Of a DNA stretch of 64,000 nucleotides, positions 3,738-59,046 are shown in pieces (position 1 is the first letter of the stretch; every line of letters begins with the position of its first letter). This DNA is from Chthoniobacterales bacterium. GTDB taxonomy: Bacteria; Verrucomicrobiota; Verrucomicrobiia; Chthoniobacterales; JACTMZ01. The translations under genes were made by a program, and so were the position numbers. The stretch spans positions 80,478-144,477 of the forward strand of contig VEQL01000003.1 in NCBI GenBank assembly GCA_018883245.1, written 5' to 3'. A model generated the notes under the pieces. The model searched no databases. It saw nothing but the letters and a program-made list of their open reading frames with translations, and was not told the origin of the DNA.

Positions 3738-3835
3738 CGAGCGGGAATTTTAACGGGAAACGTCTTCCGTGTCACCGCGCGCTTCGGTTTCGCGCGCTTC
3801 CCATCGGGGCGTGCGTCCGGTTAAACTGCGTGTCC

Positions 3836-23266: not shown

Positions 23267-25516
23267 TCAGGCTTTCTTCGACCGGCGCCAGCGAACAAAG
23301 CCCGCGCCGCCGAGCAGCATCGCGGCGGCAGCCCACGTGCCGGGTTCGGGGATGATGCCGAACTTGAGGTCCAAGTTGTTGCCGTTCTGGACCAGATAGA
23401 AGCTGCCCTCGCCGAGCGGGTTGAGGAACCCGCCCGTTCCGTTGAAGGCTGCGACGTTCAGATTGAAGTTAGTGCTGTTGAAGCCATTGATGCCGCCGGC
23501 CGCGTTGAGGATGGTCCAAGTGTAGGTGGTCAACTTGTTCGTGGGTGCGGTGAAATTGACCGCGTTACCGTTGGTGTCGGGTGAAACGCCGGAGAGCGAC
23601 CAGAGGTTGATGTTGAACTTGTTCGTATCCGAAAGGCCGGTCAGGTCGAGCGCGCCCGTGATATTGATCAAGTCCCAGCCGGTCGAACTGCCCGCCGCGC
23701 CGGTCGCGTCATGGATTTGCCAGTTGTAGTTGCCGCCGCCGTCCCACGTGGCGTTGCCGGCGATGGTTTGCGTGCCGGGTGAATTGCCCGGGCTGATCGT
23801 GCCGCCGGAGCCGACGATGAGGCCTCCGATCGATCCCGAACCACCGAGGGTGGCTCCGCTTTCCACGGTGAAAATGCTGCTATTGACCGCCCCGTTCACC
23901 ACCATGGTCCCGCCGCTCACGGTCGTCGCGCCGGAATAAGTGCTGGTGCCGGAGAGGGTGAGTGTGCCCGCGCTGTTTTTCGCCAGGCTTCCCGCGCCCG
24001 AGATCGCGCCGGACGAATTGCCCGATTGGACGGTCACGACTGTCGCGTTGCTGATGTTGATGTTGCCGCCGGTGTAGGATTTCACGGCAGTGTTGGCTCC
24101 GGTGACATTGACCGTGCCACCCGAGACGTTGGTGATCGTGGTGTTGTTGCCCGCCACGTTGAGTGTCGCGGTGCTGGTGACGGAAGCCACCGTGCTGTTC
24201 GCCGAGGAGAGTGTCGTCGTGCCCGCGTTGAACTGCGCGCCGCTGACGGTGCCGGCATTGGTCAGCGTGCCGCCGTTGATGATCAGGGCATTGGCGATGC
24301 TGAAGTTGGCGAGGTCCAGCGTGGTGCCGCTGGCCAGCGTGACCGAACCGGACCCGAAGGCCGACGCGTGGCCCGCCGTCAGTGTCCCCCCGTTGAGCAA
24401 CGTGCCGCCGCTGAAGGAATTGGAGGCCGCCAGCGACAATTCGCCGTCACCGGTTTTGGTCAGGCCGCCGGCGCCGCTCATGGCGCCGCTCACGGTCGTG
24501 TTGTTGCTGCCGCTGATGGTGAGCTGGTTGCCGTTGTTGTTGATGGCGCCCGCGAAAGTGAGTTCGCCCGCGGAGGCGTCGAAGGTTTGCGCCGCTCCCA
24601 ACGTGACCTGGTTGGAGAAGGTCTGGCCGTTGGCACTGAGGTTGACGATGCCGTTCGAAACCGTCATGGCATTGCCTGAAATGGAGAAATTTCCGGCGGT
24701 GTTGGTGAAGATGATGCTTTTGAGCTGCAGCGACGAGGAGGAGTTGGTGGTGTTGGTCATCCACGCACCCGCAAAGACCAGCGTGTCGCCGTTCATCGGC
24801 GTGTTGTTGCCGTTCCAGTTGCCATAGGCATTGGTGCTTTCGTAATCATTCCAATTCCCGGTGAAGAGGTCGCCGATCCAAGTCAAAGTGGAGGCCGCGC
24901 GGAGGGTGGCGGTGCCGCTCAGACTGGGGTTCTGGTTGGTTCCGCCTGTCGCGCTGATGGCGGTAGCTCCCTGGTTCCAGCCGTCTCCCCAGGCGGCGGC
25001 ACGAAACGTAGTCATCGTGGTGGCCGCGTTGGATGCGAAAGTGACGTTGAGCGGAGCACCGCCCGCATTCGTGCTGACCGAGTCGGTCGAGGCCAGTGCG
25101 GTGGCGTAATTGTCCCTGTTCCAATACCAACCGGCGCTGGTTCTGCCGTTTGTGGTCCGGTAGAAAATACTGTCGAGGGCCGAGAAACTGAGGGAGTAGT
25201 TGGCCGCCGGCGAGACGGTGAATTGGAAATAATCGCCATTGAGCAATGCCATGGAAGCGCTGCTCGCGCCGAAGCTGTTGGCGGCGAGCGTGTTCAGGAC
25301 ATTGACGGGAGAGATGCCGTAGCCCAGAGTCAGGGGCGTCGCCGCTACACCTGTGGCCGCGTAATTCGTGGCAGCGCTGGCTTGGCCGCCTGTGTCGTAA
25401 ACGCCCCATCTCACGAGATTCGACTGCGCCCAGCCCGGAGAACTTGCGGTGGCAAGCAGCAGAGTGGCGAGGAGGAGACTGCGGTGGAGACCGCTCGGCT
25501 TGGGCTTCGTAGTCAT
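23267..25516 (-). CDS. Autotransporter-associated beta-strand-repeat protein with PEP-CTERM sorting signal
   Basis: 749 aa with a signal peptide. Repeated G-x-L-x-L/T-G-x-N-T-Y-S-G-x-T units (e.g. GTLTLSGTSTYSGATTVSGGTMVVNG). C-terminal IPEPGTWAAAAMLLGGAGFVRWRRSKK (PEP motif, TM, basic tail). Confidence 0.8.
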   Translation of the reverse strand: MTTKPKPSGLHRSLLLATLLLATASSPGWAQSNLVRWGVYDTGGQASAATNYAATGVAATPLTLGYGISPVNVLNTLAANSFGASSASMALLNGDYFQFTVSPAANYSLSFSALDSIFYRTTNGRTSAGWYWNRDNYATALASTDSVSTNAGGAPLNVTFASNAATTMTTFRAAAWGDGWNQGATAISATGGTNQNPSLSGTATLRAASTLTWIGDLFTGNWNDYESTNAYGNWNGNNTPMNGDTLVFAGAWMTNTTNSSSSLQLKSIIFTNTAGNFSISGNAMTVSNGIVNLSANGQTFSNQVTLGAAQTFDASAGELTFAGAINNNGNQLTISGSNNTTVSGAMSGAGGLTKTGDGELSLAASNSFSGGTLLNGGTLTAGHASAFGSGSVTLASGTTLDLANFSIANALIINGGTLTNAGTVSGAQFNAGTTTLSSANSTVASVTSTATLNVAGNNTTITNVSGGTVNVTGANTAVKSYTGGNINISNATVVTVQSGNSSGAISGAGSLAKNSAGTLTLSGTSTYSGATTVSGGTMVVNGAVNSSIFTVESGATLGGSGSIGGLIVGSGGTISPGNSPGTQTIAGNATWDGGGNYNWQIHDATGAAGSSTGWDLINITGALDLTGLSDTNKFNINLWSLSGVSPDTNGNAVNFTAPTNKLTTYTWTILNAAGGINGFNSTNFNLNVAAFNGTGGFLNPLGEGSFYLVQNGNNLDLKFGIIPEPGTWAAAAMLLGGAGFVRWRRSKKA

Positions 25517-28341: not shown

Positions 28342-29049
28342 ATGCGCAAGTTGCCCATTTTCCTCGCCGCTGTAGCCACACTGGCCTTCGTTCCCGTGCA
28401 AGCCGCGATCATTTTCACCGTCAACGGCACCGTGACGACAGCGGCCGCCGGATGGAACCTCAACGACCCGGTGACGTTCACTTGGACATTGGCCGGCAAC
28501 ACGCCCGAAGCATCAGCCGGCGCCACGACCATGACCTGGTCTGAGGAACTGTCCACGCAACCGGTCCTTTTCGCCAATGTGACCGGCACCGGACTGACGG
28601 GGACTTATACCCGGCCCGTCCAATTCCTCGGCAGTCCGTATTCTTTTCTCCAAGTGAATCTCGAGCCAGCGACCCTCATTTACGCAGGAACCGATGCGGA
28701 GTTTATCGGGCTCTACGCGCCGAACAGCTCTCAAGTGTTCAGGGTCTTTGCCAACGTAGGAGCCGCGTTCGGTTATGCCATGCAAAATCCCGCGCCGTCG
28801 CCCGATACCTACTTTCCGAGCTATTTGGGAACATACAGCTCGGTCACGACTTCATCCTATCCCATCCAAAGTTCCGTCAGCACCGCGAGCGGAACGATGG
28901 AGTTTAGCCCGACCTCATTCACCATTTCCCAAGTCACAGAACCCGTTCCCGAACCCGGCACCTGGGTCGCCGCGGCGCTGCTCGCCGGCGGTGCGGCTTT
29001 CGTGCGCTGGCGCAAACGCCGCGACGAAGGGCCGAAAGAAGCAGCCTGA
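28342..29049 (+). CDS. PEP-CTERM sorting-domain secreted protein (hypothetical)
   Basis: Signal peptide MRKLPIFLAAVATLAFVPVQA. C-terminal VPEPGTWVAAALLAGGAAFVRWRKRR. No other recognised domain. Confidence 0.75.
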   Translation: MRKLPIFLAAVATLAFVPVQAAIIFTVNGTVTTAAAGWNLNDPVTFTWTLAGNTPEASAGATTMTWSEELSTQPVLFANVTGTGLTGTYTRPVQFLGSPYSFLQVNLEPATLIYAGTDAEFIGLYAPNSSQVFRVFANVGAAFGYAMQNPAPSPDTYFPSYLGTYSSVTTSSYPIQSSVSTASGTMEFSPTSFTISQVTEPVPEPGTWVAAALLAGGAAFVRWRKRRDEGPKEAA

Positions 29050-29052
29050 ACG

Positions 29053-31341
29053 ATGCGCGCCCGCAACCTGAAAACCCCGCGCAAGTTCAGCGTTGTCATG
29101 GCGCCGCCTTCCGCGATCGCCGGTTTTTTCCTTGCGGCCTTTCTCTTTCTTGCTCCCGCCGCGCAAGCGGCGGACGGGACATGGAGCGGGGGTTCGGGCA
29201 GCTTGTGGAGCGACACTGGCAATTGGAGCGCGTCGCCGGTGCCGGGTTCGGGCAACACGGCGACGTTCAATAGTGCCGGCAACGGCAACACCACCATCGA
29301 TTTGGGCGTGGGTGTGACGATCAGCAACCTTGCGTTTGATACCGCGAATGCCGCGGCTTACACGATCGGTTCGGGTGCGGTCGGTTCACAGACGAACACC
29401 CTCAATAACAGCAACGCTGTCATCGCGGTGGCCGGAACGGTCGCCAATAGCCAAGTCATCAACGCCAACATCGTGCTGGGCACCGCGATCACGGGCACGA
29501 CGCGCATTGCCAATGACGCTTCTGGCGCCAGTGGTGTGGCTCTGAATTTGGCCGGCAACATCACCGGCGGCACGGGAGGAACGGCAGGGACAAAAACCGT
29601 GATTGTTTCCGGGACGGGTGCGGTGAACCTCCAAGGCGCCATAACCAGAGGCGGAGCGAGCAGCCTCAATTTGTTGAATCTCGGAACAGGAACTATGACG
29701 CTCAGCGGCAGTGCCACCAGCGTTCTCAGCACCCTGCGGGCCACGAACTCAAGTGGTCGCATCATCGTGGATGGTCAAACCGTCAACGTGAGCTCTAACT
29801 CACAATTCGGAAATAGCAGCGGCAACGGAGGAAGTTTTGAACTGAGATCGGGAAGCGCAACATTCTCCAATGGCCTCACAGGCACCGGTGCCTACGCTGC
29901 CCAGGAAGTTAAAATCACCGGCGGAACATTCACTGCCAGCACCGTCTCCGCGACCAACATCGTGGTCAACGGCGGAACTTTTTCCAGCGGCATCACGCGA
30001 GGTGCGTTCACGCTCGATGGTTCAGCGGCTGCCGCCTACATCGGCGCCAACATTGCGTCGAACACTCCCCTCGTAAATCTCGTGCAGGGCACGCTCGGCG
30101 CGAAGGTGGCATCCGTTGTCATCAATAACCCCAGTCTCACTTTGTCTGGCGCAGAAGTGACAATTAAGGCTGCCGATGCCGGCGATGTGGCACGCACCAT
30201 AAGCATCTGGAGCCCCGTTTCCGGAGCCTATGGATTTACGAAGACGGGCGGTGGAGCGCTGAAGATCGAGACAGCTGCCACTAATGCGATCGATAGTCCG
30301 GCGACACTCAACACCTACAGCGGCACGACCACGCTGGAAGCCGGGCAGCTGATTCTAAACAAACCCACGGCTTTGGGCACTGGCGCCTTCGTCATTCTCG
30401 GGGGCTCTATTGACTGCACGACCTTCATGTATACGAACGTCACTCTCAGCAACAACAATGCGCAGAGCTGGAACGGTGACTTCGCCTACGTCGGTTCCGT
30501 CACAAATTTGAACCTCGGCGCAGGCGCGGTGACGATGAACGCCAGCCGCACGGTCACCGTGAGTAACAACGAACTCACCGTGGGCGGCGCGATCAGCGGA
30601 TCCGGCTACGGTTTGACAAAGGCGGGCGCGGGCACGCTGAACCTTACCGGCGCGAGCACCTATTCGGGCGCCACGGCGGTGAACGCGGGCACGCTCAAGG
30701 TGAACGGATCGGTGGACAGCAGCGTGACCGTGAACAGCGGCGGCACGCTGGCCGGCAGCGGCTATGTCGGCGGGCTCATCGTCGGTTCGGGTGGCACGAT
30801 CAGTCCGGGCAACTCTCCGGGCACGCTCACGGCCACCAACGCGGTGTGGAATGCCGGCGGCAACTACAACTGGCAGATCTATAACGCCACGGGCGCGGCC
30901 GGTTCGGGTTGGGACTTGCTGACCGTCACCGGAACACTCGACCTGTCCGCACTTTCCGTCGGCAGCGAATTCAACATCAACATATGGTCCTTGTCGCAGG
31001 TCACACCCGACGTGGACGGCGAGGCGATCAACTTCAACCCGGCGCAAAATTACTCTTGGACCATCGCCACCGCGTCGGGCGGTATTACCGGCTACAGCGG
31101 CACCAGCCAGTTTTTGATCAACACCAACGCCACCAAAGGCGCCGCCGGTTTTGCCAACCTGCTTGATGGCGGTAACTTCTCCGTCGTTAAGAGCGGAAGT
31201 AATCTCAACCTTGTCTTCACCTCGGCCAGCGCCGCGGTCCCCGAACCCGGCCCATGGGCGGCGGCAGCGCTGCTCGCCGGCGGCGCAGGCTTCGTGCGCT
31301 GGCGCAAACGCGCGAATGTTTCCCAAGGGCAGGGAACGTAG
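29053..31341 (+). CDS. Autotransporter-associated beta-strand-repeat protein with PEP-CTERM sorting signal
   Basis: 762 aa with a signal peptide. Same repeat type as 23267..25516 (e.g. GTLNLTGASTYSGATAVNAGTLKVNG). A paralogous C-terminal module (GGLIVGSGGTISPGNSPGT...NYNWQI...) is followed by VPEPGPWAAAALLAGGAGFVRWRKR. Confidence 0.8.
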   Translation: MRARNLKTPRKFSVVMAPPSAIAGFFLAAFLFLAPAAQAADGTWSGGSGSLWSDTGNWSASPVPGSGNTATFNSAGNGNTTIDLGVGVTISNLAFDTANAAAYTIGSGAVGSQTNTLNNSNAVIAVAGTVANSQVINANIVLGTAITGTTRIANDASGASGVALNLAGNITGGTGGTAGTKTVIVSGTGAVNLQGAITRGGASSLNLLNLGTGTMTLSGSATSVLSTLRATNSSGRIIVDGQTVNVSSNSQFGNSSGNGGSFELRSGSATFSNGLTGTGAYAAQEVKITGGTFTASTVSATNIVVNGGTFSSGITRGAFTLDGSAAAAYIGANIASNTPLVNLVQGTLGAKVASVVINNPSLTLSGAEVTIKAADAGDVARTISIWSPVSGAYGFTKTGGGALKIETAATNAIDSPATLNTYSGTTTLEAGQLILNKPTALGTGAFVILGGSIDCTTFMYTNVTLSNNNAQSWNGDFAYVGSVTNLNLGAGAVTMNASRTVTVSNNELTVGGAISGSGYGLTKAGAGTLNLTGASTYSGATAVNAGTLKVNGSVDSSVTVNSGGTLAGSGYVGGLIVGSGGTISPGNSPGTLTATNAVWNAGGNYNWQIYNATGAAGSGWDLLTVTGTLDLSALSVGSEFNINIWSLSQVTPDVDGEAINFNPAQNYSWTIATASGGITGYSGTSQFLINTNATKGAAGFANLLDGGNFSVVKSGSNLNLVFTSASAAVPEPGPWAAAALLAGGAGFVRWRKRANVSQGQGT

Positions 31342-31446: not shown

Positions 31447-33258
31447 ATGGAAAACGAAGAGCCGAACATTTTTGTAAAGACGGGATCCGCGGTGGCCGAC
31501 TTTTTCACCCGCTGGTGGCGCGAGGCGACGGGCCCGATCGAATGGCATCACGCGCAGACGCCATTCCATGCGGTTTTGCGTCGCGTTCTGCTGTGGGTTC
31601 CGGTGGCGGTTTTGGCGGCTGTGGTTTTCGGCTCGATCGGGTTGCACTTTTTTGTCGGCTGGCGGGCGCGCGATCTGGCACGCAAGGCGGTGGCCAGTGC
31701 GGAGGAGGGGCGGTGGCCGGCGGCGCAGGTGCAGATCGGTTCGGCCCGCAACCTCCGCCCTGAGGATCCGGCCGTGCAATGCGCGCTCGCGGTCATCGAG
31801 ACGAAGATGGGGTTGCCTTCGGCCGCAAAGACGTGGAGTCAATTGCCCGAAGGTTTTCAACTGACCAAGGAGGAACTCGAAGCGCGGGCCTTGGCCATGA
31901 TGCGCAACGGCGACGAACCGCAATATGCCGAGGCTCTGGCTGCGCTGGAGGAGGCCGGGTTCGGGGCCGAGGCTGCGGCCATCCGGGTGGAGAGGAATGT
32001 GTCCCGCGGCAATTTGCAGCAGGGTATCGCCGAAGCGCGTGCGGCTGTGCGGTCCTCTGACACCCCGGCCCACCGACTCACTTTGGCGCGTCTTCTGTTG
32101 GCCCGGCATGGTGTTTTCCTGCAAAGCTCGAACTCGCCCGGGCCCGAAGATCTCGCGGGTGCGAAGGAAATTTCGGACATCGCGGACTCTCTGCTGGGCG
32201 CACCCGAAGGCGAGCAACTCTTGGCTTTGATCTTCGCCAATTTGCGTCTTACGGGGAGCCAACGGCAGCGCTGGTCCGCCGCCGCATGGAAACGTCCCGC
32301 CCCGGACAACCCCGCTTTGCTCCCCGCCGCCACGGCTATGATCGCTGCCGGCGATGCCACAAGGGAGGAAATGACCAACCGGCTCAAAGCCGTGTATGCA
32401 GGGGCCGAGCCTTCACGGAAAACCGCCTTGGCCGCATGGCTGGTCATGCACGGCGGCGATCCCGAGGGTGCCCTGGTTTATCTGCCACCCGCGGAAGCAA
32501 CGCGCCATGCCAACGCGTTCCTCGCGCGCTGCGCAGCGTTGTCCTCGTTGGGCCGATGGGAGGAGTTGCGTGCGCTGGCCGAAGGACCTGGCAGCGTGCC
32601 TCGCAGCTTGATGTCCGCCGTGGCGGCGCAGGCGAACGCCAAACTTGATCGCGGAGCGCAGGCCGAGAAATTTGCGCAGGACGCCGTGCGCACCGCCGCC
32701 CGCGAAGGCACCATCGTCATGACCCTGCGCCTGCTCGACGAATCGGGATTCCGCGAACTGGTCGACAGGGAGGTTGTTGCGCTGTGCGGCGAAACCGGGA
32801 CATCGGAGCTTTTCTTCCGCTTGGCGCGCGAACGCTTCGGCCGCGGGGGGCAACCGGCAAGCCTGCAAGCCGCTTACGAACGTGCCGCCGGAGCTTCCCC
32901 GCACGCCACGGCCGTCCAGAGCCAACAACTTTATGACAGACTGCTCTCCGGGTCTCCTGTCGATCCACAGCAAACCGCCGCCGCGCTGGCCGCGTCGCCC
33001 ACAGATGTGAATCTTCGCCTGACGCACGCCCTCGCTCTGCTCAAAACCGGCCGTGCGGCCGAAGCCCTGGCCGTCTTCGATGAATTCGACGTTTTCGTCG
33101 AACAGTTGCCGCCCGGCCAGCAAGCCATCGCCGCCGCCATTCTCGGTGCCAACGGCCAAGGAAAGGCGGCAGAGCAACTGGCTCGCTCGCTCGACCCCGA
33201 CTATCTTGCCCCCGGTGAGTATGCCCTCATTGCGGAATGGCGGGCGGCCAAAGACTGA
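31447..33258 (+). CDS. Hypothetical N-terminally anchored, Ala-rich helical-repeat (TPR-like) protein
   Basis: ATG at 31447 (the track start at 31426 is GTG). One TM (VLLWVPVAVLAAVVFGSIGLHFFVGW) is followed by about 520 aa of Ala/Leu/Arg-rich helical repeats. No catalytic motif recognised. Confidence 0.5.
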   Translation: MENEEPNIFVKTGSAVADFFTRWWREATGPIEWHHAQTPFHAVLRRVLLWVPVAVLAAVVFGSIGLHFFVGWRARDLARKAVASAEEGRWPAAQVQIGSARNLRPEDPAVQCALAVIETKMGLPSAAKTWSQLPEGFQLTKEELEARALAMMRNGDEPQYAEALAALEEAGFGAEAAAIRVERNVSRGNLQQGIAEARAAVRSSDTPAHRLTLARLLLARHGVFLQSSNSPGPEDLAGAKEISDIADSLLGAPEGEQLLALIFANLRLTGSQRQRWSAAAWKRPAPDNPALLPAATAMIAAGDATREEMTNRLKAVYAGAEPSRKTALAAWLVMHGGDPEGALVYLPPAEATRHANAFLARCAALSSLGRWEELRALAEGPGSVPRSLMSAVAAQANAKLDRGAQAEKFAQDAVRTAAREGTIVMTLRLLDESGFRELVDREVVALCGETGTSELFFRLARERFGRGGQPASLQAAYERAAGASPHATAVQSQQLYDRLLSGSPVDPQQTAAALAASPTDVNLRLTHALALLKTGRAAEALAVFDEFDVFVEQLPPGQQAIAAAILGANGQGKAAEQLARSLDPDYLAPGEYALIAEWRAAKD

Positions 33259-33440
33259 GCGCAGGACCGCACTGCGCGGCAAGATTGTCCCTGTGCTGGG
33301 TAATCGGGCTTTTTCGGTTTCTGCTGCTTCGCCGCAAGCGACTTCGATGACGCGCGGCTTTCCTGTGTCCGGAATTCCATGATCTCGGCGCTGCGGAAAG
33401 AGTTTGACCGCCGAATTACGGTGCTTAGTTTGTGCACCTC

Positions 33441-33761
33441 ATGAGCCTTGGGCGCCGCTTCCGTATCCTTTGGATGGCCGGTCTGTCGCTGTTGGCGGTG
33501 ACTCAACTCACCCATGCGTTCGAGCATTGGGAGATCGCCGCCAATGCGGATTGCGTGTCTCACGCCCATGCCGATGCAGACCATGGCGACGGCGGTTCGC
33601 GCCACGATCACGGCTGCACTTCGCATGACCACGCACCAGCGCTTCCGGGCGGCATCTTTCTGCTCACCGTCACCGAAACGGTCGCCGTCGTGTCGTCGGA
33701 TCATCTCGGAGTGCCTGCGCCGCGATCGTCTTCGATCGATCACCCGCCTCAATTGTCCTGA
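33441..33761 (+). CDS. Small His/Asp/Cys-rich putative periplasmic metal-binding protein (CzcI-like position)
   Basis: ATG at 33441. Signal-like N-terminus (RILWMAGLSLLAVTQLTHA), then HWEIAANADCVSHAHADADHGDGGSRHDHGCTSHDHAP. Located directly upstream of the czcC-like gene. Confidence 0.45.
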   Translation: MSLGRRFRILWMAGLSLLAVTQLTHAFEHWEIAANADCVSHAHADADHGDGGSRHDHGCTSHDHAPALPGGIFLLTVTETVAVVSSDHLGVPAPRSSSIDHPPQLS

Positions 33762-33880
33762 CCTGCGACAGGCGAAGTGTGCCTGTCGCCCCGGCGTGTC
33801 TGCCGGACCCGCGCATCTCTTGCCGGATGCGTTCATGCCGCCGACCGGCGCGGCTCGAGTATCTGCCGGTCATCAGGACC

Positions 33881-35191
33881 ATGAAAACACAATCAACATT
33901 CGGGAAAATTGCGATCGCGCTCTGCGCGGTGGTCGCATCGGAAGGCGCCGCTGCGGAGTTGTCGCTGCAGGATGCGGTCAACACCGCGCTGATGAACAAC
34001 CGCGAACTTGCCGCGGCACGCCATGTGGTGGGGCAGGGGCAGGGGCGCTTGCGCCAGGCGGGCCTGCTGCCCAATCCCGAGGTGGAGTTCAACGGCTACG
34101 GCGATTTTGTTTCCGGCTCCGAAGGCGAGGGGGCTTTCGTCATCGGGCTGCACCAGTGGTTCCCGCTGACGGCGCGGCTCGGCTTGGCGCGGCAGGTGGC
34201 CCGCGTCGATGTGGCCATGGCGCTCCGCGAAGTGCGCAACCGCGAACGTCTGCTGGTCGCCGAGGTGCAGAAAGTTTACGCGCGCGCCCAGGCGGCCCGC
34301 CGTCGTGAGCAATCCTCGGCCCAGGCACGCAACGATTCGTCCGACCTCGTGTCGCTCGCGGGAGAGCGGCTCGCCTCGGGTCAGGGTTCGCTCGCCGAGT
34401 CCGCACTCGCCCGTGTGGACGAGCAGCGCTGGGGAAATGCGGCTGATGTCGCGGCGGCCGAAGCGGAAAAATGCCTCCTCGAAATGAAAACGGCGCTCGG
34501 CCTGGGCGCCGACGCTCCGCTCTCTCTCACCCAGTCGCTGAAGTCGGTGGTCGATGAGTTGCGCGACAAAGCGCGGAGCGGGCGCATTTCCTGCCGTCCC
34601 GACATGGAACTGGCCATGCTGGCCGCGGACAAATCGTCCGCCGAAGTCGCGTTGGCCAAGGCGGGCGCGTGGGAGGGAATTCGTCTCGGCATCGAATACA
34701 TGCAGGATCGAAGCGTGGACCAACCGGGCGGGATTTCCACCGGGGATTTTCTCGGCGTGAAAGTCACGCTTCCTTTGCCGGTGTGGGACCGCAAGGTGGG
34801 CGAAACACAGGAGCGTCAGGCTGCGGCGGAAGCCAAAGCTGCGCAGTTGCGCGCGCTCGAACTCGAGGTGGCCAACGACATCGCTGCCGCGCGCCAACAG
34901 GCGGCTTTGTTCGAGAAGCAGTGGTCGCGATACCGCGGGACAACAGAACCGCTGGTCGAGTCGGGAAGCCGCGAAATTTCGCAGGGATTCAGCGAGGGCC
35001 GCGTCGATGCGCGCGATCTCCTGATGGTCCGGGCGCAGAACGCGAGCCTGCGCGTCGAATCAACAGCCATGCTGGAAAACCTTGCCCTCGCGCTCATCGA
35101 TCTTGAAGCGGCGGCGGGAAGTCATCCGGCCATGTCCGCGCCGTATTTGCAAGAGGCGCCGCTGCACCGCAGGAAGAAAACGAAATCATGA
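33881..35191 (+). CDS. czcC: TolC-family outer-membrane efflux protein (CzcC-like)
   Basis: ATG at 33881 gives a signal peptide. Two OEP repeats (LSLQDAVNTALMNNRELAAAR...). 436 aa. Stop overlaps the following ATG (ATGA). Confidence 0.85.
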   Translation: MKTQSTFGKIAIALCAVVASEGAAAELSLQDAVNTALMNNRELAAARHVVGQGQGRLRQAGLLPNPEVEFNGYGDFVSGSEGEGAFVIGLHQWFPLTARLGLARQVARVDVAMALREVRNRERLLVAEVQKVYARAQAARRREQSSAQARNDSSDLVSLAGERLASGQGSLAESALARVDEQRWGNAADVAAAEAEKCLLEMKTALGLGADAPLSLTQSLKSVVDELRDKARSGRISCRPDMELAMLAADKSSAEVALAKAGAWEGIRLGIEYMQDRSVDQPGGISTGDFLGVKVTLPLPVWDRKVGETQERQAAAEAKAAQLRALELEVANDIAAARQQAALFEKQWSRYRGTTEPLVESGSREISQGFSEGRVDARDLLMVRAQNASLRVESTAMLENLALALIDLEAAAGSHPAMSAPYLQEAPLHRRKKTKS

Positions 35192-35192
35192 A
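35158..35192 (+). repeat. Direct repeat copy 1 (35 bp) covering the czcC 3' end, stop and overlapping ATG
   Basis: gccgctgcaccgcaggaagaaaacgaaatcatgaa is identical to 37614-37648. Checked base by base. Confidence 0.95.
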
Positions 35193-37596
35193 CCTCCCGG
35201 CTTCGCACTCACCGGCGACGATGGGGAAACCCGCTCCCGCATTCGTGTTCGATCCGCTTCCCGAATGGCCGAAAGACGCCGCCCCATCTGTTTATCCCTT
35301 CGTTCGACCGAATCTGCCGGGCGAGGCACCAACCCCCGACCCGCTGCGGAACACGAGCTTCGACGCCGACCTCGCGCATCGCGCGTGCACGGAGCTGGTC
35401 TCCTACGCGCTGAGGCCGGTCGCACACCATGCGTCCCCCGCAGGAAGTTTCGTTGTCCACGACGCCGGCCTCGAAATCGAAGTGCGCGGCCCCGGCGAGT
35501 TGCGCTTGGACTTCGGCGTCGTAAGTGCAGGCTGGCTGGAGTTCGAGTGCGATTCGCTCCCGGAAGGCGTGACGCTCAGCATCAGCGAATACCTGCGTCC
35601 CGCCTTGGTGAACGCCGGGGCGGTCAATCCGGTGAAGACCGCCCGGCCCATGCGGGTCGCGGGCTCGACCTGGCGCCTGACGCTCAACCCCGAGTTCTAC
35701 GAAGGCGTGCGCTTTGGCTGGCTGCACGCCCCCGAAGTAGCCCCGTGGCGGCTGCGCAACCTCCGCCTTGTCTGCCAAGCCCGGCCCGCGAACTACCTCG
35801 GCTCCTTCTCGTGCGACGATCCCATCTTGGAACAGATCTGGGAGGTCGGAGCCACGACGGTGCGGCTCAATTTTCTCAAGGACTACATCGGCGCGATCCT
35901 CATGGAACGCAGCGACCGCCACTCGTGGACAGGAGACGCCCATGTTTCCCAGGCCGTGGCCATGCCGGTGTTTGGCAACTTCGGCTTTGTGCGCGCCAAC
36001 CTCGACCGCACCGCGGGCGACACCAACGGGATCGAGGGCTTCTCGCTGTATTGGATTCTCTCGCTCCTCGACTACGTGTTGTGCTCCGGCGATCGCGAAG
36101 CGCTCCGCCACTACCTGCCGACCGTGCGCGCGAAGCTCGACCACGCCATGTCGGTCGTCTCCAAGCGGCTCCCGCTGGTCTTTTGCGGACACGACGACCG
36201 GACAGGTGGCGCCTTCGAAGAGCCCGACATCGAGGAGAACCGCCGCTTCTTTCACTATCTCGCTTGGAGAACCGTGCGGGCGGTGCGAGATGTGCTCGAC
36301 TGGATCGACGGCGACGCCAAGACGGCGGAATGCTGCGACCGGTGCGAGTCCTTGCTCTCCGTCAATCGTCCCCCCGCGATTGAGGCGGGGCTGCACGAGG
36401 GAACCGAGGCGATCCTCGCCGGCCAGCCAGTGGATGCCGCGTTCCTGGAACGTGAATACCAAAACCCCGCGCGTTTCGTCTCCTACTCGCCATTCAACAA
36501 TTTCTTCGTGCTTCAGGGCATGACCGCGGCGGGCTGCCACACCTCCGCGCTCGCTTTGCTCAAGCGATGCTGGGGTGAGATGCTCGCGCTCGGTGCCACG
36601 ACGTTCTGGGAATCGTTCCGGCCGGAGTGGCGCGACTTTCTCCCCGCCTGCGAGCAGATCCCCAACGGCATGCATGGCTTCACCAGCCTCTGCCATCCGT
36701 GGAGCGCCGGCCCGACACGCTGGCTGACGGATCATGTGCTCGGCATCCGCCCGATCTCCCCGGGCTACGCCGACTTCGTGTTCGATCCGATTTCCGACAG
36801 GCCCCGCATCGTTTCAGGATCGGTGGCCACGCCGCATGGAGTCATTCGCGCGGGCATTGATGACGACGTCGCTTGGGTCGAGGTGCCCGCAGGCTGCCGC
36901 TGTCATGTGAACGGCCGCGCCTGCCCGGCCGGGCGGCACGAGGGCCTGTCCCTGCCTCGCTCGAAATCGTCGAACACGGCCGCGCCCGAGCCGCGATACG
37001 CCGGCCGCTGGGAACCGGACGGCACGCTGGCGGACGCGATGTCGGGAGGAGCCGAGTGGATCGCGTTCTCGGCCCAGGCGCCAGACGCGGACCTGAGCAA
37101 AATCCGCTCCGCCACCGAGGTCATCGTGCCCGACCAGCGCCCCCACGGTCGGGCCTGGAGACACCATTACGCCGATGTGCAAGGCCCCTTCTCCGGAGCG
37201 CTTCGCACCTGTTATCCCTCCGTGGTTCAACAAACCTTCACAGTGGATGTGCGGCGTCCGAAGAGCGTTGCCTACCGCCTTGGCATCTATTGCCGGGACC
37301 TGCACCGCGAAGGGATTCGCCAAACGGTGGAGGTCCTCGGGCTCGACAGCAAAACCCTGCTCGCCCCGACTCGCCTGCTTGAAAATTTCCAAGACGGGCT
37401 AGTCCTCTGGATCGGCTGCACCGGCGGCGTGCGTATCCGCATCTGCGACTTCCCGGGCATAAACGCTTCCCTCAACGGGCTCTTCTTCTCAACCCAGACC
37501 ATGCCACATGGCCACCCACCCAACACCGGCAGAGTTTGCCAAGCCAACGAACCAGTTTCGTCCCTGGCTGTTTCTGGTCCTCAACGACGAGCATGA
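35188..37596 (+). CDS. GH78-like (alpha-L-rhamnosidase family) six-hairpin glycosidase with C-terminal extension
   Basis: 802 aa. ERSDRHSWTGDAHVSQ resembles the GH78 R-D-E-R-x-G-W-T-G-D-A motif. TTFWESF...SLCHPWSAGPTRWLTDHVLGIRP resembles the (alpha/alpha)6 catalytic domain end. No signal peptide seen. Confidence 0.6.
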   Translation: MNLPASHSPATMGKPAPAFVFDPLPEWPKDAAPSVYPFVRPNLPGEAPTPDPLRNTSFDADLAHRACTELVSYALRPVAHHASPAGSFVVHDAGLEIEVRGPGELRLDFGVVSAGWLEFECDSLPEGVTLSISEYLRPALVNAGAVNPVKTARPMRVAGSTWRLTLNPEFYEGVRFGWLHAPEVAPWRLRNLRLVCQARPANYLGSFSCDDPILEQIWEVGATTVRLNFLKDYIGAILMERSDRHSWTGDAHVSQAVAMPVFGNFGFVRANLDRTAGDTNGIEGFSLYWILSLLDYVLCSGDREALRHYLPTVRAKLDHAMSVVSKRLPLVFCGHDDRTGGAFEEPDIEENRRFFHYLAWRTVRAVRDVLDWIDGDAKTAECCDRCESLLSVNRPPAIEAGLHEGTEAILAGQPVDAAFLEREYQNPARFVSYSPFNNFFVLQGMTAAGCHTSALALLKRCWGEMLALGATTFWESFRPEWRDFLPACEQIPNGMHGFTSLCHPWSAGPTRWLTDHVLGIRPISPGYADFVFDPISDRPRIVSGSVATPHGVIRAGIDDDVAWVEVPAGCRCHVNGRACPAGRHEGLSLPRSKSSNTAAPEPRYAGRWEPDGTLADAMSGGAEWIAFSAQAPDADLSKIRSATEVIVPDQRPHGRAWRHHYADVQGPFSGALRTCYPSVVQQTFTVDVRRPKSVAYRLGIYCRDLHREGIRQTVEVLGLDSKTLLAPTRLLENFQDGLVLWIGCTGGVRIRICDFPGINASLNGLFFSTQTMPHGHPPNTGRVCQANEPVSSLAVSGPQRRA

Positions 37597-37613
37597 ACGC
37601 GGTCCTGGCGAAA

Positions 37614-37648
37614 GCCGCTGCACCGCAGGAAGAAAACGAAATCATGAA
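37614..37648 (+). repeat. Direct repeat copy 2 (35 bp) immediately 5' of and including the czcB start
   Basis: Identical 35-mer, 2456 bp downstream of copy 1. In the czcC reading frame it again encodes PLHRRKKTKS-stop. Confidence 0.95.
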
Positions 37649-38597
37649 ACTCATCCTAACCATCGCCATCATTGCCGTCGCCGCGTCAGCGCTGAATGCC
37701 GGGCCCGGCCACGATCATCCCGAAGAACCGGGCGGAGCCGCAGTGCAGGGCGGGCCTGTGGAGTTGACGCAACAACAGGCCGACAATCTCGGCCTGCAGA
37801 CTGTTGAAGCGGAAATCACCGAACTGGCGCCGACCTTGGAAGTGCCGGCCGTCTTCGTTCTGCCGCCCGAACGCCACGCGCGCATCACGGCGCCGTTTGC
37901 GGGTCGCGTCACCGCGCTCCTGGCCAAGCTCGGCGATCACGTGCAGCGCGAACAACCGCTTTTGCGTGTCACTCCGTTGGCCGTGGGAAGTCCGCCGCAG
38001 GAAATCAAAGCCCCGCTCGACGGGGTCATATTCGAACAGGATGCGGTCATCGGCCTCCCTTTCACTCCGGAAACCACGCTCATGCAGACAGGCGATTACC
38101 GCGAGTTGCTGGCACGCGGGAGTTTTTACCAATCGCCCGAACTGACGCGCGTCGAGCCCGGGCAAAAGACCGTGGTCTTGCTCGACGTTTTCCCGGGCGA
38201 ACGCTTCGAGGGCAAGGTGCAGCGCGTTGATCCCGGGCACACGGATGGCAGCGCGTTCTTCCACATTTACGCGCTGGTGCCGAATCCCGAAGACAAGCTG
38301 CATCCGAACTATCGCGGACGCATGCTCATCGAAACCGGCGCGCCCCAGACCGTTGTGGCCGTGCCGCGACGTGCCGTCCTCGGCCGATTGGGAGCGAAGT
38401 TCGTCTATGTGCAGACCGCACCGCTGCATTTCGAGCGGCGCGAGGTGGTCGCCGGTCTGGTCTCGGGCGACCGCGTGGAAATTGTCGAGGGCGTGCTGCC
38501 CGGCGATGCGGTTGTGACCAACGGCCACTACCAACTGCAATACACCGGGGGCGGCGGGGCACCCGCCGAAGAAGCCGGTCACGATCACGCGCACTGA
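37644..38597 (+). CDS. czcB: Efflux RND periplasmic adaptor (CzcB/HlyD family)
   Basis: ATG at 37644 gives the signal/anchor MKLILTIAIIAVAASALNA. Barrel-sandwich hybrid and beta-barrel regions. HDH motifs at both ends (GHDHPEE, GHDHAH). Confidence 0.85.
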   Translation: MKLILTIAIIAVAASALNAGPGHDHPEEPGGAAVQGGPVELTQQQADNLGLQTVEAEITELAPTLEVPAVFVLPPERHARITAPFAGRVTALLAKLGDHVQREQPLLRVTPLAVGSPPQEIKAPLDGVIFEQDAVIGLPFTPETTLMQTGDYRELLARGSFYQSPELTRVEPGQKTVVLLDVFPGERFEGKVQRVDPGHTDGSAFFHIYALVPNPEDKLHPNYRGRMLIETGAPQTVVAVPRRAVLGRLGAKFVYVQTAPLHFERREVVAGLVSGDRVEIVEGVLPGDAVVTNGHYQLQYTGGGGAPAEEAGHDHAH

Positions 38598-38601
38598 TCC
38601 C

Positions 38602-41744
<3,143 letters not shown>

Positions 41745-41748
<4 letters not shown>

Positions 41749-42170
41749 AAAACCTCGTATTTATCGTCACATCCATCTTCGCGCTCGCGCTGTGTCTGCG
41801 CGCCGGAGAAAACCACGACCACGGCCACAGCCACGAACACATTGCCATCCCGCCGACCTTGCCAGAGGTGCGCGTCGAGATTGCTGCGCAACAGAAAAAG
41901 CTGTCCGAGTCCCTGGCCGCACGTGATGCCAAAGCCGCCCACGAGGCGACAGATGTGATGGCCGCCTTGGTGCTGGCCATTCCGGGAAAAGCGGAGGGGT
42001 TGGATGAAACAACCCTGCAGCGACTCAAAGGTATGGCAAGCAACGCGGCCAGGGCCTGGGGGAATGTGGCGCACGACGCCGAGCATGGCGACTATGACAA
42101 AGCCGGACGCGAAGCGGTCAAAGCGGATGCCGCCTATCGGCTCATCGAGGCAAGACTGGCGAGGCAGTGA
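41745..42170 (+). CDS. Small secreted His-rich helical protein (putative metal-binding accessory protein)
   Basis: ATG at 41745 overlaps the czcA stop (ATGA). Signal peptide MKNLVFIVTSIFALALCLRA, then GENHDHGHSHEH and an all-helical Ala-rich body with a further HDAEHGD. Confidence 0.5.
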
Positions 42171-42191
42171 TGCAAGGCGGGGGAAGGCGGG

Positions 42192-43361
42192 CTATCGCCC
42201 CGGGGCCATTTCGAGAAGGTGGCCTTTGAGGTAGGAGGATTCGGGGATGCCGAGGATGACGGGGTGGTCGGCGCGCTGGGTGTAGCTCGCGCGGAGGCGG
42301 GCGGTTTTCCTGGCATCGACCATGGCATCGCGGATGACGTCGAGGAAGATGGCGTCGCTGACGTGGTGGGAGCAGCAGAAGGTGGCAAGCAAGCCGCCGT
42401 TGCCGAGGAGCTGGGCGGCACGGAGATGGATTTCTTTGTAGCCGCGGAGGGCATCGTTCAACCGCGCGCGGTCGCGGGTGAAACTCGGCGGATCAAGGAT
42501 GATGAGGTCGTAGGCTTCGCCGCGGCTCACCGCGGTTTTCAGCCAGTCGAAGACGTTGGCTTCGGTCACATTCAAGCGGACGTTATTGCGTTTCGCGTTG
42601 GCTTCGATGGTGGCGCAGGCGTCGGCGGAAATATCGAGGGCCGTGACTTCGCTTGCACCGGCCAGGGCGGAGGCAAGGGCGAAACCGCCTTGGTTGCTGA
42701 AGCAGTCGAGAACGCGTTTGCCTTTGGCGAGCTGTGCCACGAGGGCATAGTTGTCCGCTTGGTCGAGGTAGAGTCCGGTTTTTTGTCCGCCGGGGAGATC
42801 GATGCCGAAATTTATGCCGCCGAGAGGGACCTCGAAGGGCCCGGGGGCTTTGCCGCGAAGGATCGAGGTTGTCAGTTCGAGGCCCTCGGCTTTTCGCACC
42901 GGTGCGTCGTTGCGCTCGATGATGCAGGTCGGCTTGAGAATTGCTTCGAGGGCATCGGCGATGAGATCTTTGCGCCGATCCATCGCGAGGGTGAGCGTCT
43001 GCATCACGACGCAATCCCCGTAGCGGTCGAGGATGACTCCCGGGAGTCCGTCGCTTTCACTCCAAACTTCGCGGCGGGCTCGGGGATCGAGGCCGAGCTT
43101 GTCGCGGTATTCCGATGCCATTGCGATGCGGCGCGCGAAAAAATCGCCATCGAGGTCTTGGCGCTGACGCGAGAATCGGCGGGCGGGGATTTTGGAGCGG
43201 CTGTTGTAGATCGCGCTGCCGACAAAGCGGTCTCGCTGGTCTTTCAGTCCGACCACGGAGCCGTCCTCCGGATTTCCGGTGACTTTGAGAACCTCGTTGT
43301 CATGGACCCAGTCGTGTCCGTGAAAAACGCGCGCACGGGGGCGGACGATGACGTTCGCCAT
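42192..43361 (-). CDS. rlmI: Class I SAM-dependent rRNA (cytosine-C5) methyltransferase, RlmI-like
   Basis: The ATG at 43361 gives MANVIVRPRARVFHGHDWVHDNEV (PUA-like N-terminus). SAM-binding VLDCFSNQGGFAL and ILDPPSF motifs. Confidence 0.8.
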   Translation of the reverse strand: MANVIVRPRARVFHGHDWVHDNEVLKVTGNPEDGSVVGLKDQRDRFVGSAIYNSRSKIPARRFSRQRQDLDGDFFARRIAMASEYRDKLGLDPRARREVWSESDGLPGVILDRYGDCVVMQTLTLAMDRRKDLIADALEAILKPTCIIERNDAPVRKAEGLELTTSILRGKAPGPFEVPLGGINFGIDLPGGQKTGLYLDQADNYALVAQLAKGKRVLDCFSNQGGFALASALAGASEVTALDISADACATIEANAKRNNVRLNVTEANVFDWLKTAVSRGEAYDLIILDPPSFTRDRARLNDALRGYKEIHLRAAQLLGNGGLLATFCCSHHVSDAIFLDVIRDAMVDARKTARLRASYTQRADHPVILGIPESSYLKGHLLEMAPGR

Positions 43362-48180: not shown

Positions 48181-50361
48181 GTGCCTACCCACTCGCGAGA
48201 ACCCGCCGACGGGCTGTCCGGCCTGGTCGAGCGCGTGACTTTCCACAACGAGGATACCGGGTTTGCGGTGCTCAAGGTGAAAGTCAAGGGACGGCGCGGT
48301 CTGGTGCCGGTGGTCGGGGCGGTAGCCGCCGTTTCCCCGGGTGAATGGATCACCGCCGAGGGGCATTGGGAGCGGAATCGCGACCATGGCATGCAACTGC
48401 GCGCGGCGACCATCCGTTGCCAGCCTCCGAACTCGCTCGAAGGCATCGAGAAATACCTCGGCAGCGGGCTGATCCGCGGGATCGGTCCGGTTTACGCGAA
48501 AAAGATGGTGGCAAAATTCGGGACCGAAATTTTCAACATCATCGAGAACGCCTCGGCGCGGCTGCAGGATGTCGAAGGCATCGGCGCGGGGCGGCGGCAG
48601 CAGATCAAAGCGGCATGGGCCGAGCAGAAGGTAGTGCGCGACATCATGGTTTTTCTCCACGGCCACGGCATCAGCACGAGCCGTGCGTTGCGCGTTTACA
48701 AACTTTACGGCGAGGAGGCCATCGCGCGGGTGCGCGCCAATCCCTACCTGCTCGCGCGCGACATTCCGGGCATCGGTTTCAAGTCGGCTGACGCCGTGGG
48801 TGCGAAGCTCGGCTTCGGCCATGATTCCATCCTGCGCGCGCGCGGCGGTTTGCAGCATGTTTTGTCCGAGGCCACCGGCGAGGGGCATACGGCATTGCCG
48901 GAAAGGTTGCTCCTTTCCGCCGCCGCGGAACTTCTCGGGGTGGATGAAAGCGTGGTGGCCGGCGCTCTCGAACGCGAGATCGCTGACGAGCAACTGGTCG
49001 CTGAAAAGATCGCCGGGGAGTCCATGGTGTTCCTGCCGGCTTTGCACGCCGCGGAGGTCGTGGTGGCCGGAGCCATGCGAAGGCTCGGGGCAGCTCCGGC
49101 GAACTATCCGCAGATCGATTTCGACAAAGCGCTCGTCTGGGTGCAGGAAAAAACCGGGAAGACCCTTTCGCCCAGTCAGGTCGAAGCCCTCCGCCGTGCG
49201 CTCGGCTCCCGTGTGTGCGTGGTCACCGGAGGCCCGGGTGTCGGCAAAACAACACTGCTCGACAGCCTCCTGAAAATTCTCGCCGCCAAAAAAGTGAGGT
49301 TCCAGCTCTGCGCGCCGACTGGACGCGCGGCCAAGCGGATGGGCGAGTCCACCGGTTGCCAAGCGCAGACGATCCACCGCCTGCTCGAGGTTTTTCCGTC
49401 CGGCGGCTTCAAGCGTGGCACAAAACATCCTCTCGATACCGACCTTGTTGTGGTGGACGAGTTTTCGATGGTCGATGTGCAGCTCATGGCCTCGCTTTGC
49501 CGCGCTTTGCCCGCGCGGGCTTCGCTCATTCTCGTGGGCGATCCGGACCAGTTGCCGAGCGTCGGACCGGGATCGCTTTTGTCGGACATCCTCGCCAGCG
49601 GGGTGGTCCCCTCGGTGCGGCTGACGGAGATTTTCCGCCAAGCCGAGGCCAGCTCCATCGTCCGCGTCGCACACGACGTGCGTCACGGGCGCATGCCCGA
49701 TGATCCCGAGGAAAAAGGCGGCGACTTCGCGTTCATGCACCGCGAAGAGCCGGAAGAAATCGCGGAGCTTGTGCTCCGGCTCGCGCGCACCGAGATCCCG
49801 CGCCGGCTCGGACTCGATCCCGTGCGCGACGTCCAAGTCCTTGCCCCCATGCACCGCGGCAGCCTCGGGATCCGCGAACTCAACACCGCCCTGCAGGCCG
49901 CGCTGAATCCGCCGCGCCAAGACCGCGCCGAAGTCGAGCGCTTTGGAACGAAATTCCGCACGGGCGACAAAGTTCTCCAGACGCGGAACAACTACGACAA
50001 AGAGGTCTTCAACGGCGACATCGGACGTATTTCCTCGATCGATCCGGAAGAGCGCCAAGTCGCCGTGGATTTCGACGGACGGCGTGCGGTTTACGAATTC
50101 GGCGAATTGGACGAGATCGAGCCGGCCTACGCGATCAGCATCCACAAAAGCCAGGGGTCGGAATTTCCGGCGGTGGTGATTCCGCTGGCCATGCAGCATT
50201 TTCTGCTCCTGCAGCGCAACCTGCTTTACACCGGGATCACGCGCGGGAAAAAGCTCGTCGTGGTGGCCGGTCAGCGCAAAGCGTTTGCCACGGCCGTGCG
50301 GCAGAATGACACGCGTCGCCGGCACGGGGGATTGCTGGCGCGGCTCAAGGAATCGTCGTGA
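48181..50361 (+). CDS. recD2: SF1B ATP-dependent RecD-like DNA helicase (RecD2)
   Basis: GTG start. N-terminal OB/HhH region. Walker A GGPGVGKTT, Walker B VVDEFSMVD, and C-terminal SIHKSQGSEF. Confidence 0.85.
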   Translation: MPTHSREPADGLSGLVERVTFHNEDTGFAVLKVKVKGRRGLVPVVGAVAAVSPGEWITAEGHWERNRDHGMQLRAATIRCQPPNSLEGIEKYLGSGLIRGIGPVYAKKMVAKFGTEIFNIIENASARLQDVEGIGAGRRQQIKAAWAEQKVVRDIMVFLHGHGISTSRALRVYKLYGEEAIARVRANPYLLARDIPGIGFKSADAVGAKLGFGHDSILRARGGLQHVLSEATGEGHTALPERLLLSAAAELLGVDESVVAGALEREIADEQLVAEKIAGESMVFLPALHAAEVVVAGAMRRLGAAPANYPQIDFDKALVWVQEKTGKTLSPSQVEALRRALGSRVCVVTGGPGVGKTTLLDSLLKILAAKKVRFQLCAPTGRAAKRMGESTGCQAQTIHRLLEVFPSGGFKRGTKHPLDTDLVVVDEFSMVDVQLMASLCRALPARASLILVGDPDQLPSVGPGSLLSDILASGVVPSVRLTEIFRQAEASSIVRVAHDVRHGRMPDDPEEKGGDFAFMHREEPEEIAELVLRLARTEIPRRLGLDPVRDVQVLAPMHRGSLGIRELNTALQAALNPPRQDRAEVERFGTKFRTGDKVLQTRNNYDKEVFNGDIGRISSIDPEERQVAVDFDGRRAVYEFGELDEIEPAYAISIHKSQGSEFPAVVIPLAMQHFLLLQRNLLYTGITRGKKLVVVAGQRKAFATAVRQNDTRRRHGGLLARLKESS

Positions 50362-57573: not shown

Positions 57574-57576
57574 GGC

Positions 57577-58965: not shown

Positions 58966-59046
58966 CGCGGCCGCAAACATACGGATGACGAGCGGTCATT
59001 TCCAGCGCGGCTTGCTTTTTGCCGCGCGGTCGGAAAAGTAGCGGCC

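Follow-up and report, generated by a model that had tools for sequence, protein, structure and literature searches.

The 64,000-nucleotide stretch analyzed here (hereafter the window) comes from a Chthoniobacterales bacterium (assembly GCA_018883245.1, contig VEQL01000003.1, positions 80,478 to 144,477 of the forward strand) and encodes a CzcCBA-type metal-efflux locus, in which the gene of the outer-membrane factor (czcC) and that of the periplasmic adaptor (czcB) are no longer neighbors. Between them lies a 2,421-bp fragment of a glycoside hydrolase (GH) gene cluster, which was probably inserted at the czcC/czcB overlap by illegitimate recombination independent of any transposase, duplicating 35 bp of the target. 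A perfect direct repeat brackets the fragment, related loci have an empty site at this position, the fragment holds one intact and one truncated glycosidase gene, and mobile-element features are lacking. Illegitimate recombination is favored because two novel junctions and a 35-bp duplication are combined with arbitrary fragment ends and no element-encoded functions. The event appears to be a single accident of DNA repair, not a new kind of mobile element or a new system.

The 35-mer GCCGCTGCACCGCAGGAAGAAAACGAAATCATGAA is found on the plus strand, as are all genes of the locus and of the insert described below, at 35158-35192 and again at 37614-37648, a spacing of 2456 bp. The 64-kb window contains no further match with up to three mismatches allowed, and a second copy is not predicted by chance, since 100 dinucleotide-preserving shuffles yielded 0 matches to the 35-mer. 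Other direct repeats of such kind in the window are limited to a PEP-CTERM coding repeat and a 22-mer. The similarity reaches 39 nt, of which 38 are identical (CCTC versus ACTC 3' of the 35-mer), and except for the shared CTC, the flanks of the two copies are unrelated. Copy 1 (35158-35192), the left target duplication, is an exact 35-mer that matches the single junction of the related locus L025 at 33 of 35 positions. It consists of the final 31 nt of czcC through the stop, overlapped by an ATG within ATGAA, and encodes the ...PLHRRKKTKS-stop (TGA at 35189-35191) of the TolC-like open reading frame (ORF) of 470 codons, while its ATG at 35188 opens an 802-codon ORF that ends at 37596. Copy 2 (37614-37648), the right target duplication, is likewise exact, aligns to the single junctions of relatives, and provides the native 30 nt 5' of czcB, including AGGAAG, together with the czcB ATG at 37644. 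The original prediction, made from the sequence alone, had described a perfect 35-bp repeat spaced by 2456 bp, and the exact-match scan and the shuffles bear this out. It had also assigned the C-terminal codons of the TolC-like gene and the overlapping ATG of the 802-aa ORF to copy 1 and the overlapping czcB ATG to copy 2, which agrees with the ORF coordinates and with the ATG at 37644, and its view that the sequences beside the repeats are unrelated stands apart from the shared CTC.

Evidence of an insertion comes from relatives. A scan with the adaptor protein, using one genome per species, identified 16 close loci, all from Verrucomicrobia and mostly labelled as Chthoniobacterales metagenome-assembled genomes (MAGs). 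The comparison set of 22 loci consists of 15 genome loci with an upstream region (L004-L019) and seven JGI metagenome contigs (L025-L031), the latter chosen as carriers of the closest outer-membrane alleles. In every one of them czcC directly adjoins czcB, by an ATGA overlap in 19 and with a 3-nt gap in three; no intervening gene is seen, and the inserted fragment is missing from 22/22. Using blastn, the single junction of L025, L029, and L014 aligns to the window at 33955-35196 and then from 37614 on, and positions 2384-2422 of L025 align both to the window sequence ending at 35196 and to that beginning at 37614. As one ancestral junction matches both copies, the 35 bp represent a target duplication. 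Both copies display AGG where the clade-A relatives (L014 and L025-L031) have AAA, and hence the allele that was duplicated was that of the window itself. These relatives differ from the window by ~15% of nucleotides over czcC, such that ~5 differences would be expected between two 35-bp copies of the same age as that split, while 0 are seen. This suggests that the insertion took place well after the split from those relatives, although selection on both copies weakens such dating. From these alignments the insertion is taken as real and lineage-specific, and it is probably recent and confined to a single lineage. The relatives thus show the uninterrupted czcC-czcB pair with one junction that the original prediction had anticipated, and these empty sites support its proposal of a ~2.4-kb insertion at the ATGA junction with the junction duplicated.

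The same comparison bears on the opposite possibility, namely that czcC-GH-czcB is an ancient, vertically inherited architecture whose repeat was kept by selection or gene conversion. Both copies do overlap functional signals, the tail and stop of czcC and the start of czcB, and purifying selection could slow their divergence. However, 22 of 22 loci from both clades lack the cargo gene and have one junction each, which refutes this explanation, and homologues of the cargo gene are never found in efflux operons; an ancient origin is consequently next to impossible.

The inserted fragment (35193-37613) begins with a 28-bp 5' flank, followed by a GH78-like gene that is intact and by 35 codons from the start of a GH106-like gene, the last two accounting for the only domains within it. 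The GH78-like ORF (35188-37596, 802 aa), a six-hairpin, rhamnosidase-related protein, matches PF17389 with 44.1 bits against a cut-off of 24.5, a partial match covering profile positions 3-74 of 339. It also shows partial matches to rhamnosidases in the PDB (3cih, E 1.5e-33; 2okx, E 5e-14), while the NCBIfam collection gives no match. The cargo is best called GH78-related, and rhamnosidase activity is putative. All of the ~150 residues that are invariant in a 10-sequence alignment of the family are kept, in keeping with a recent event. M12 at 35221 is the probable native start, because conservation begins at W27 and the spacing from M12 corresponds to the start of the closest homologue. The current N-terminus would accordingly combine two codons from the duplicated czcB start with nine from the former 5' flank, and the 28 bp before 35221 are now translated from the duplicated ATG, with which they happen to be in frame. 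The cargo gene also contains a 34-nt repeat (35237-35270 versus 36770-36803; 82% identity, 15 nt exact), which encodes AFVFDPLPEW and DFVFDPISDR. As homologues have a similar N-terminal motif, this FVFDP repeat is compatible with chance and codon bias and probably does not reflect a rearrangement.

The cargo ORF stops 17 bp before copy 2, and the right junction cuts a second gene. This GH106-like 5' fragment (37508-37613) opens with an ATG at 37508, comprises 35 codons, MATHPTPAEFAKPTNQFRPWLFLVLNDEHERGPGE, is cut 106 nt into the gene, and shares DNA with the 3' end of the GH78-like ORF, which is read in a different frame. In a tblastn search of a 1030-aa protein of locus L003 against the whole window, the stump corresponds to residues 9-39 of that protein (18/31 identical, E 6e-7); this protein matches PF17132 with 39.8 bits against a cut-off of 29 and is encoded two genes 3' of the closest cargo homologue. 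As the left end precedes the probable cargo start by 28 bp and the right end falls inside a gene, the insert appears to be an arbitrary slice of a rhamnosidase-type cluster without the defined ends of a cassette. Cassette-like capture, one of the options in the original prediction, is disfavored by an insert ending within a second, cut gene. Most homologues lack the last 34 aa of the cargo protein, and it is this C-terminal tail that the stump overlaps; either the donor genes overlapped by 89 nt or the cargo gene lost its original stop. A further observation concerns the DNA 3' of the cargo TGA, where the same frame continues as TRSWRKPLHRRKKTKS-stop (37597-37646) and ends at the czcB ATGA. 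Read-through of one stop would give the cargo gene a direct stop/start overlap with czcB, yet the frame match has a 1-in-3 chance and is probably coincidental.

Homologues place the origin of the cargo outside efflux operons. The closest are 66-67% identical at the amino acid level, with one partial match of 72% over 57% of the length, and their neighbors are GH65, GH95, GH106, and GH116 genes, more GH78-like genes, and AraC regulators. In composition, by contrast with its genomic setting, the cargo gene is not an outsider: its GC content, GC3 (0.79), and synonymous codon choice are mid-range among 30 host genes, while the codon usage of the five closest homologues, all from other organisms, reaches only the low end of the host range or lies below it. 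Compositional foreignness of the cargo was thereby ruled out. The glycosidase gene had originally been predicted to be foreign, and this holds with respect to the locus, as its homologues sit in glycosidase clusters, but not with respect to GC3 and codon usage, in which it resembles an average host gene. Such host-like codon usage makes the same genome, or that of a close relative, the probable donor. A donor search with a 40-aa query from the GH106-like stump gave no match, no second copy of the insert is present in the 64-kb window, and the exact cargo protein is not on record from any other contig.

Features of mobile elements were searched for at several levels. No terminal inverted repeats exist between the insert ends CCTCCCGGCTTCG... 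and ...GGTCCTGGCGAAA, and no att/attC-type site or recombination-site structure is found at an insert end. Domain scans covering the sizeable ORFs of the 64 kb detected no transposase; otherwise these ORFs represent housekeeping genes, PEP-CTERM and autotransporter-repeat proteins, and a two-component system. Neither a transposase nor an integrase lies within 30 kb of the insertion, in line with the original remark that none is visible nearby, and the sole recombinase of the window is Xer-like and located 34 kb away (746-1648). The window also has no cas gene or CRISPR array and no other long flanking duplication. A duplication of 35 bp exceeds the 2-14 bp typical of insertion sequence (IS) families, and the repeats restore the end of czcC and the start of czcB, as direct repeats of integrative elements do. 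Two other candidate explanations were rejected: a retro-copy made from cDNA, as no reverse transcriptase is present and the fragment covers parts of two genes, and breakage caused by structure of the empty site, as the site shows no unusual folding.

It could still be proposed that an enzyme with a long stagger acted in trans, for example a transposase of the IS4/IS1634 type, a Cas1-family integrase, or an unknown integrase, and that the segment is its non-autonomous cargo. Flanking direct duplications are the classic signature of integration at staggered cuts, 35 bp falls within the range of CRISPR repeat duplication (28-37 bp), and the 35-mer contains a small CTGC-ACC-GCAG palindrome and an A-rich tail. 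Yet terminal inverted repeats and conserved end motifs are missing, the right end of the insert is inside a cut gene, and no transposase, cas gene, CRISPR array, or second copy is found in 64 kb. Moreover, the insert is ~70 times the length of a spacer and carries 2.4 kb of ordinary genes, and the reconstructed empty site folds no better than shuffles (z = +2.1). An enzyme acting in trans is therefore unlikely. The more specific proposal that the duplication is the footprint of an unrecognized integration activity, e.g., an off-target Cas1-like or ruler-type integrase with cuts ~35 bp apart, has only a slight chance of being correct. If true, integration in trans could place promoterless chromosomal fragments at operon junctions, with the cargo and the downstream gene both still expressed owing to the duplicated translation-initiation region.

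A single crossover of the Campbell type would also leave direct repeats. Here, a circle carrying the GH fragment and one copy of the 35-bp junction would have integrated by homologous recombination, so that repeats of exactly the shared segment arise automatically, and 35 bp slightly exceeds the shortest homology on which RecA-dependent recombination operates in E. coli. However, this scenario needs an earlier event in which both sides of the GH fragment had become linked to the czc junction, which only moves the problem back, and plasmid or element genes are absent from the insert. A Campbell-type origin is thus quite improbable. By the same minimal recombination lengths, the 35-bp repeats would be long enough for occasional precise excision.

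Besides the insertion, the locus has a second unusual property, as the czcC allele beside the insert differs in affinity from the rest of the operon. Sliding-window identities, alignments, and identity matrices delimit a clade-A-like tract at 33960-35192 that continues beyond the insert from 37614 to ~37670, with fuzzy edges at ~33870-33966 and ~37670-37690. The body of czcC (33966-35157) is 81-85% identical at the nucleotide level to clade A (L025, L014) and 65% to clade B (L004, L006, and L007), and both repeat copies as well as the first czcB codons group with clade A. In contrast, the upstream small gene, the adaptor gene from ~37,700, and the pump gene are 78-85% identical to clade B and 52-74% to clade A; for czcB the values are 81-82% and 71%, respectively. 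Within clade B, the outer-membrane gene evolves faster than the pump gene, as L006 and L004 share 73% in the former versus 85% in the latter. Rate variation therefore cannot account for the window pattern, in which czcC resembles clade A more closely than the pump gene resembles clade B, and the sequence comparison identifies the window czcC as a recombinant allele from the other clade, i.e., an allele replacement. The right edge of the tract lies 25-45 bp past copy 2 and hence within ~50 bp of the insertion. This proximity may be a coincidence, or both may stem from one complex repair event with several template switches. If it was one event, this would explain why both copies are identical and of the clade-A type.

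The mosaic also matters for an assembly or scaffolding artefact, in which czcC and czcB are truly contiguous and a 2.4-kb contig was misplaced between contigs overlapping by 35 bp. The sequence is a MAG contig, its junctions are reproduced in no other sample, and the mosaic of the neighboring czcC could in principle reflect strain mixing. Against this, insert and czc locus have no k-mer-sized sequence in common apart from the 35-mer, and because of that a de Bruijn path would not exist without reads spanning both junctions. The region has no Ns, and 35 is neither k nor k-1 of the usual assembler settings. In addition, where the mosaic changes from one clade to the other, the alleles of clades A and B share only ~65% identity, too little for chimeras to form through shared k-mers. 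An artefact is the main caveat on the insertion but has a low probability.

As for how illegitimate recombination would have produced the arrangement, we infer a break or a template switch, a donor, and a selective filter, and two versions agree with the observations. In a first version, nicks ~35 bp apart on opposite strands would generate a break with long 5' overhangs, followed by fill-in of the overhangs and end joining to a captured DNA fragment. In a second version, a replication or repair polymerase would leave the czc template after copying the junction, continue over 2.4 kb of an ectopic locus, and resume 35 bp upstream of its departure point, as in microhomology-mediated break-induced replication (MMBIR) or fork stalling and template switching (FoSTeS). 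Hints of microhomology are weak and consist of the CTC that follows the left junction after one base and of a GH106 alignment that reaches 2-4 residues into copy 2. Only insertions that spare the operon would be likely to persist, and the duplication may account for the survival of this one, since czcC retains its stop and czcB its ATG together with the 30-nt region upstream of it. At the same time, the promoterless cargo gene would gain a start codon overlapping the czcC stop and become coupled to czcC. That a break can be healed with a captured fragment is known from experiments in Streptomyces, where end-joining repair of an induced break picked up pieces of the organism's own genome with lengths of up to 18.8 kb (PMC5869714). 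Beyond these fragment-capture experiments, the literature provides no direct match for a natural bacterial fragment insertion with a long duplication.

Several points speak against illegitimate recombination as the explanation. The evidence derives from the assembly of one metagenome-assembled contig, and no same-species empty site or second occurrence of the insertion is seen: a 28-mer from the repeat has 0 matches in JGI metagenome contigs, and a collection of 5.8 billion proteins contains no same-species czcB product, i.e., none above 88% amino acid identity. The same collection contains no protein more than 67% identical to the cargo, and the donor locus was not found. Furthermore, for a break that arises spontaneously a stagger of 35 nt is long, an end-joining route in the host (Ku/LigD or another) has to be presumed, and a single event cannot establish the mechanism as general.

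The surrounding operon is otherwise conserved. The locus is of the CzcCBA type, as a pump of the heavy-metal efflux (HME) family of resistance-nodulation-division (RND) transporters, an adaptor, and an outer-membrane factor occur together, and the gene order is the same in the 22 relatives. The first conserved gene (33432-33761; start uncertain, with an ATG at 33441) encodes a small His-rich protein that has no match in Pfam or NCBIfam and is, by tblastn, 53-73% identical to the clade-B proteins at the same position but only 28% to those of clade A. It is followed by the czcC-like gene of the TolC-family outer-membrane factor (33827-35191; PF02321, E 4.6e-23; stop TGA 35189-35191). Its product equals MBU3664635.1 exactly with the NCBI start at 33827, while relatives begin at the ATG at 33881. 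Beyond the insert, the czcB-like gene (37644-38597) encodes a periplasmic adaptor of 317 aa with a signal peptide and His-rich ends, which scores 114.6 against a cut-off of 94.9 for TIGR01730 and matches PF13437 and PF16576. In the NCBI annotation, the adaptor has 334 aa from an ATG at 37593, which overlaps the cargo stop as another ATGA. Full-length adaptors of relatives are mostly 315-320 aa long with starts aligned to 37644, and the NCBI start would for this reason lie within insert-derived sequence, probably adding 17 residues before the signal peptide; the case serves as a warning for annotation. The czcA-like heavy-metal RND pump (38602-41748) scores 791.6 for TIGR00914 (CusA/CzcA), above the curated cut-off of 701.45, and matches PF00873 (E 4e-263). 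The last conserved gene (41745-42170), whose ATG overlaps the czcA stop as ATGA, encodes a small His-rich secreted protein with no protein family match; a longer ORF containing it (41613-42170) is 48-67% identical in amino acids to relatives at the same position (tblastn). The His-rich ends of the adaptor and the two small His-rich proteins point to metal binding, with Co/Zn/Cd as putative substrates, and the latter two may be metal-binding accessory proteins of the Chthoniobacterales efflux locus. A promoter and terminator scan of 33000-42500 found no sigma-70-like promoter, and terminator-like matches were no more frequent than expected and thus uninformative on polarity.

Elsewhere in the window, a 75-nt direct repeat of 85% identity (28945-29019 and 31237-31311) encodes the C-terminal ...PEPG...AAALLAGG..FVRWRKR of two adjacent genes. 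The first of these has a PEP-CTERM sorting-domain match just above the cut-off, while the second, as well as a third gene (23267-25516, minus strand), has autotransporter-type beta-strand repeats. The exact 22-nt direct repeat ACGGCGAGGAGGCCATCGCGCG (48707-48728 and 59237-59258) lies in two unrelated genes, one encoding a RecD2-like helicase and the other being a long ORF (56509-60087) with a C-terminal PAD_porph (peptidyl-arginine deiminase-type) domain, and it is probably due to chance and codon bias. The Xer-like tyrosine recombinase, encoded on the minus strand, falls slightly short of the XerC/XerD equivalog cut-offs; like it, a ParB gene (3830-4720) is located near the window start. Both belong to housekeeping chromosome maintenance and are unrelated to the insertion.

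Among known systems, elements of the IS1634/IS1549 group (IS4 family) are characterized by unusually long and variable target duplications, and the insertion resembles them in its direct target duplication of tens of base pairs. However, those elements have a transposase and terminal inverted repeats, whereas the insert has neither and ends in a cut gene. Islands in tRNA genes and Xer-dependent modules carry a copy of the end of their target gene, and as in the present case, perfect direct repeats of 15-60 bp restore the interrupted gene and leave the downstream gene functional. Unlike these islands and modules, the insertion shows no integrase or recombination-site architecture, its target is a poorly conserved operon junction, and its cargo is a promoterless gene plus a stump. 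MMBIR and related template switching were reportedly described by Hastings et al. in 2009, and template switching in E. coli is said to have been reported by Slack et al. in 2006. As in MMBIR/FoSTeS, an ectopic templated insertion would be combined with a short duplication from the return of the polymerase upstream of its departure, and such a process could cover the clade-A tract ending within ~50 bp of the insertion in the same event. In contrast to the known cases, no other signature of complex rearrangement is visible.

The alternative end-joining pathway of E. coli also captures ectopic genomic fragments at double-strand breaks, and to our knowledge there is no report of a target duplication of such length in bacterial end joining. 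Such scars are rarely documented in bacteria, and this one provides a clean natural case of an operon gaining a gene without a mobile element, in which a long duplication keeps both neighbors intact; it is therefore relevant to operon growth and to the entry of DNA by non-homologous routes. The nearest counterpart is end-joining fragment capture in the I-SceI experiments with Streptomyces ambofaciens, where arbitrary chromosomal DNA of kilobase scale likewise came to lie at an unrelated site (PMC5869714). In both, an element enzyme, defined ends, and homology are lacking, and the donor is probably endogenous or closely related. The present event differs in being natural and inferred from sequence, and in its 35-bp target duplication, which needs a staggered break with fill-in or a template switch. 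It reveals no new system and is most suitably classed as a case of illegitimate fragment capture, notable for the unusual length of its target duplication.

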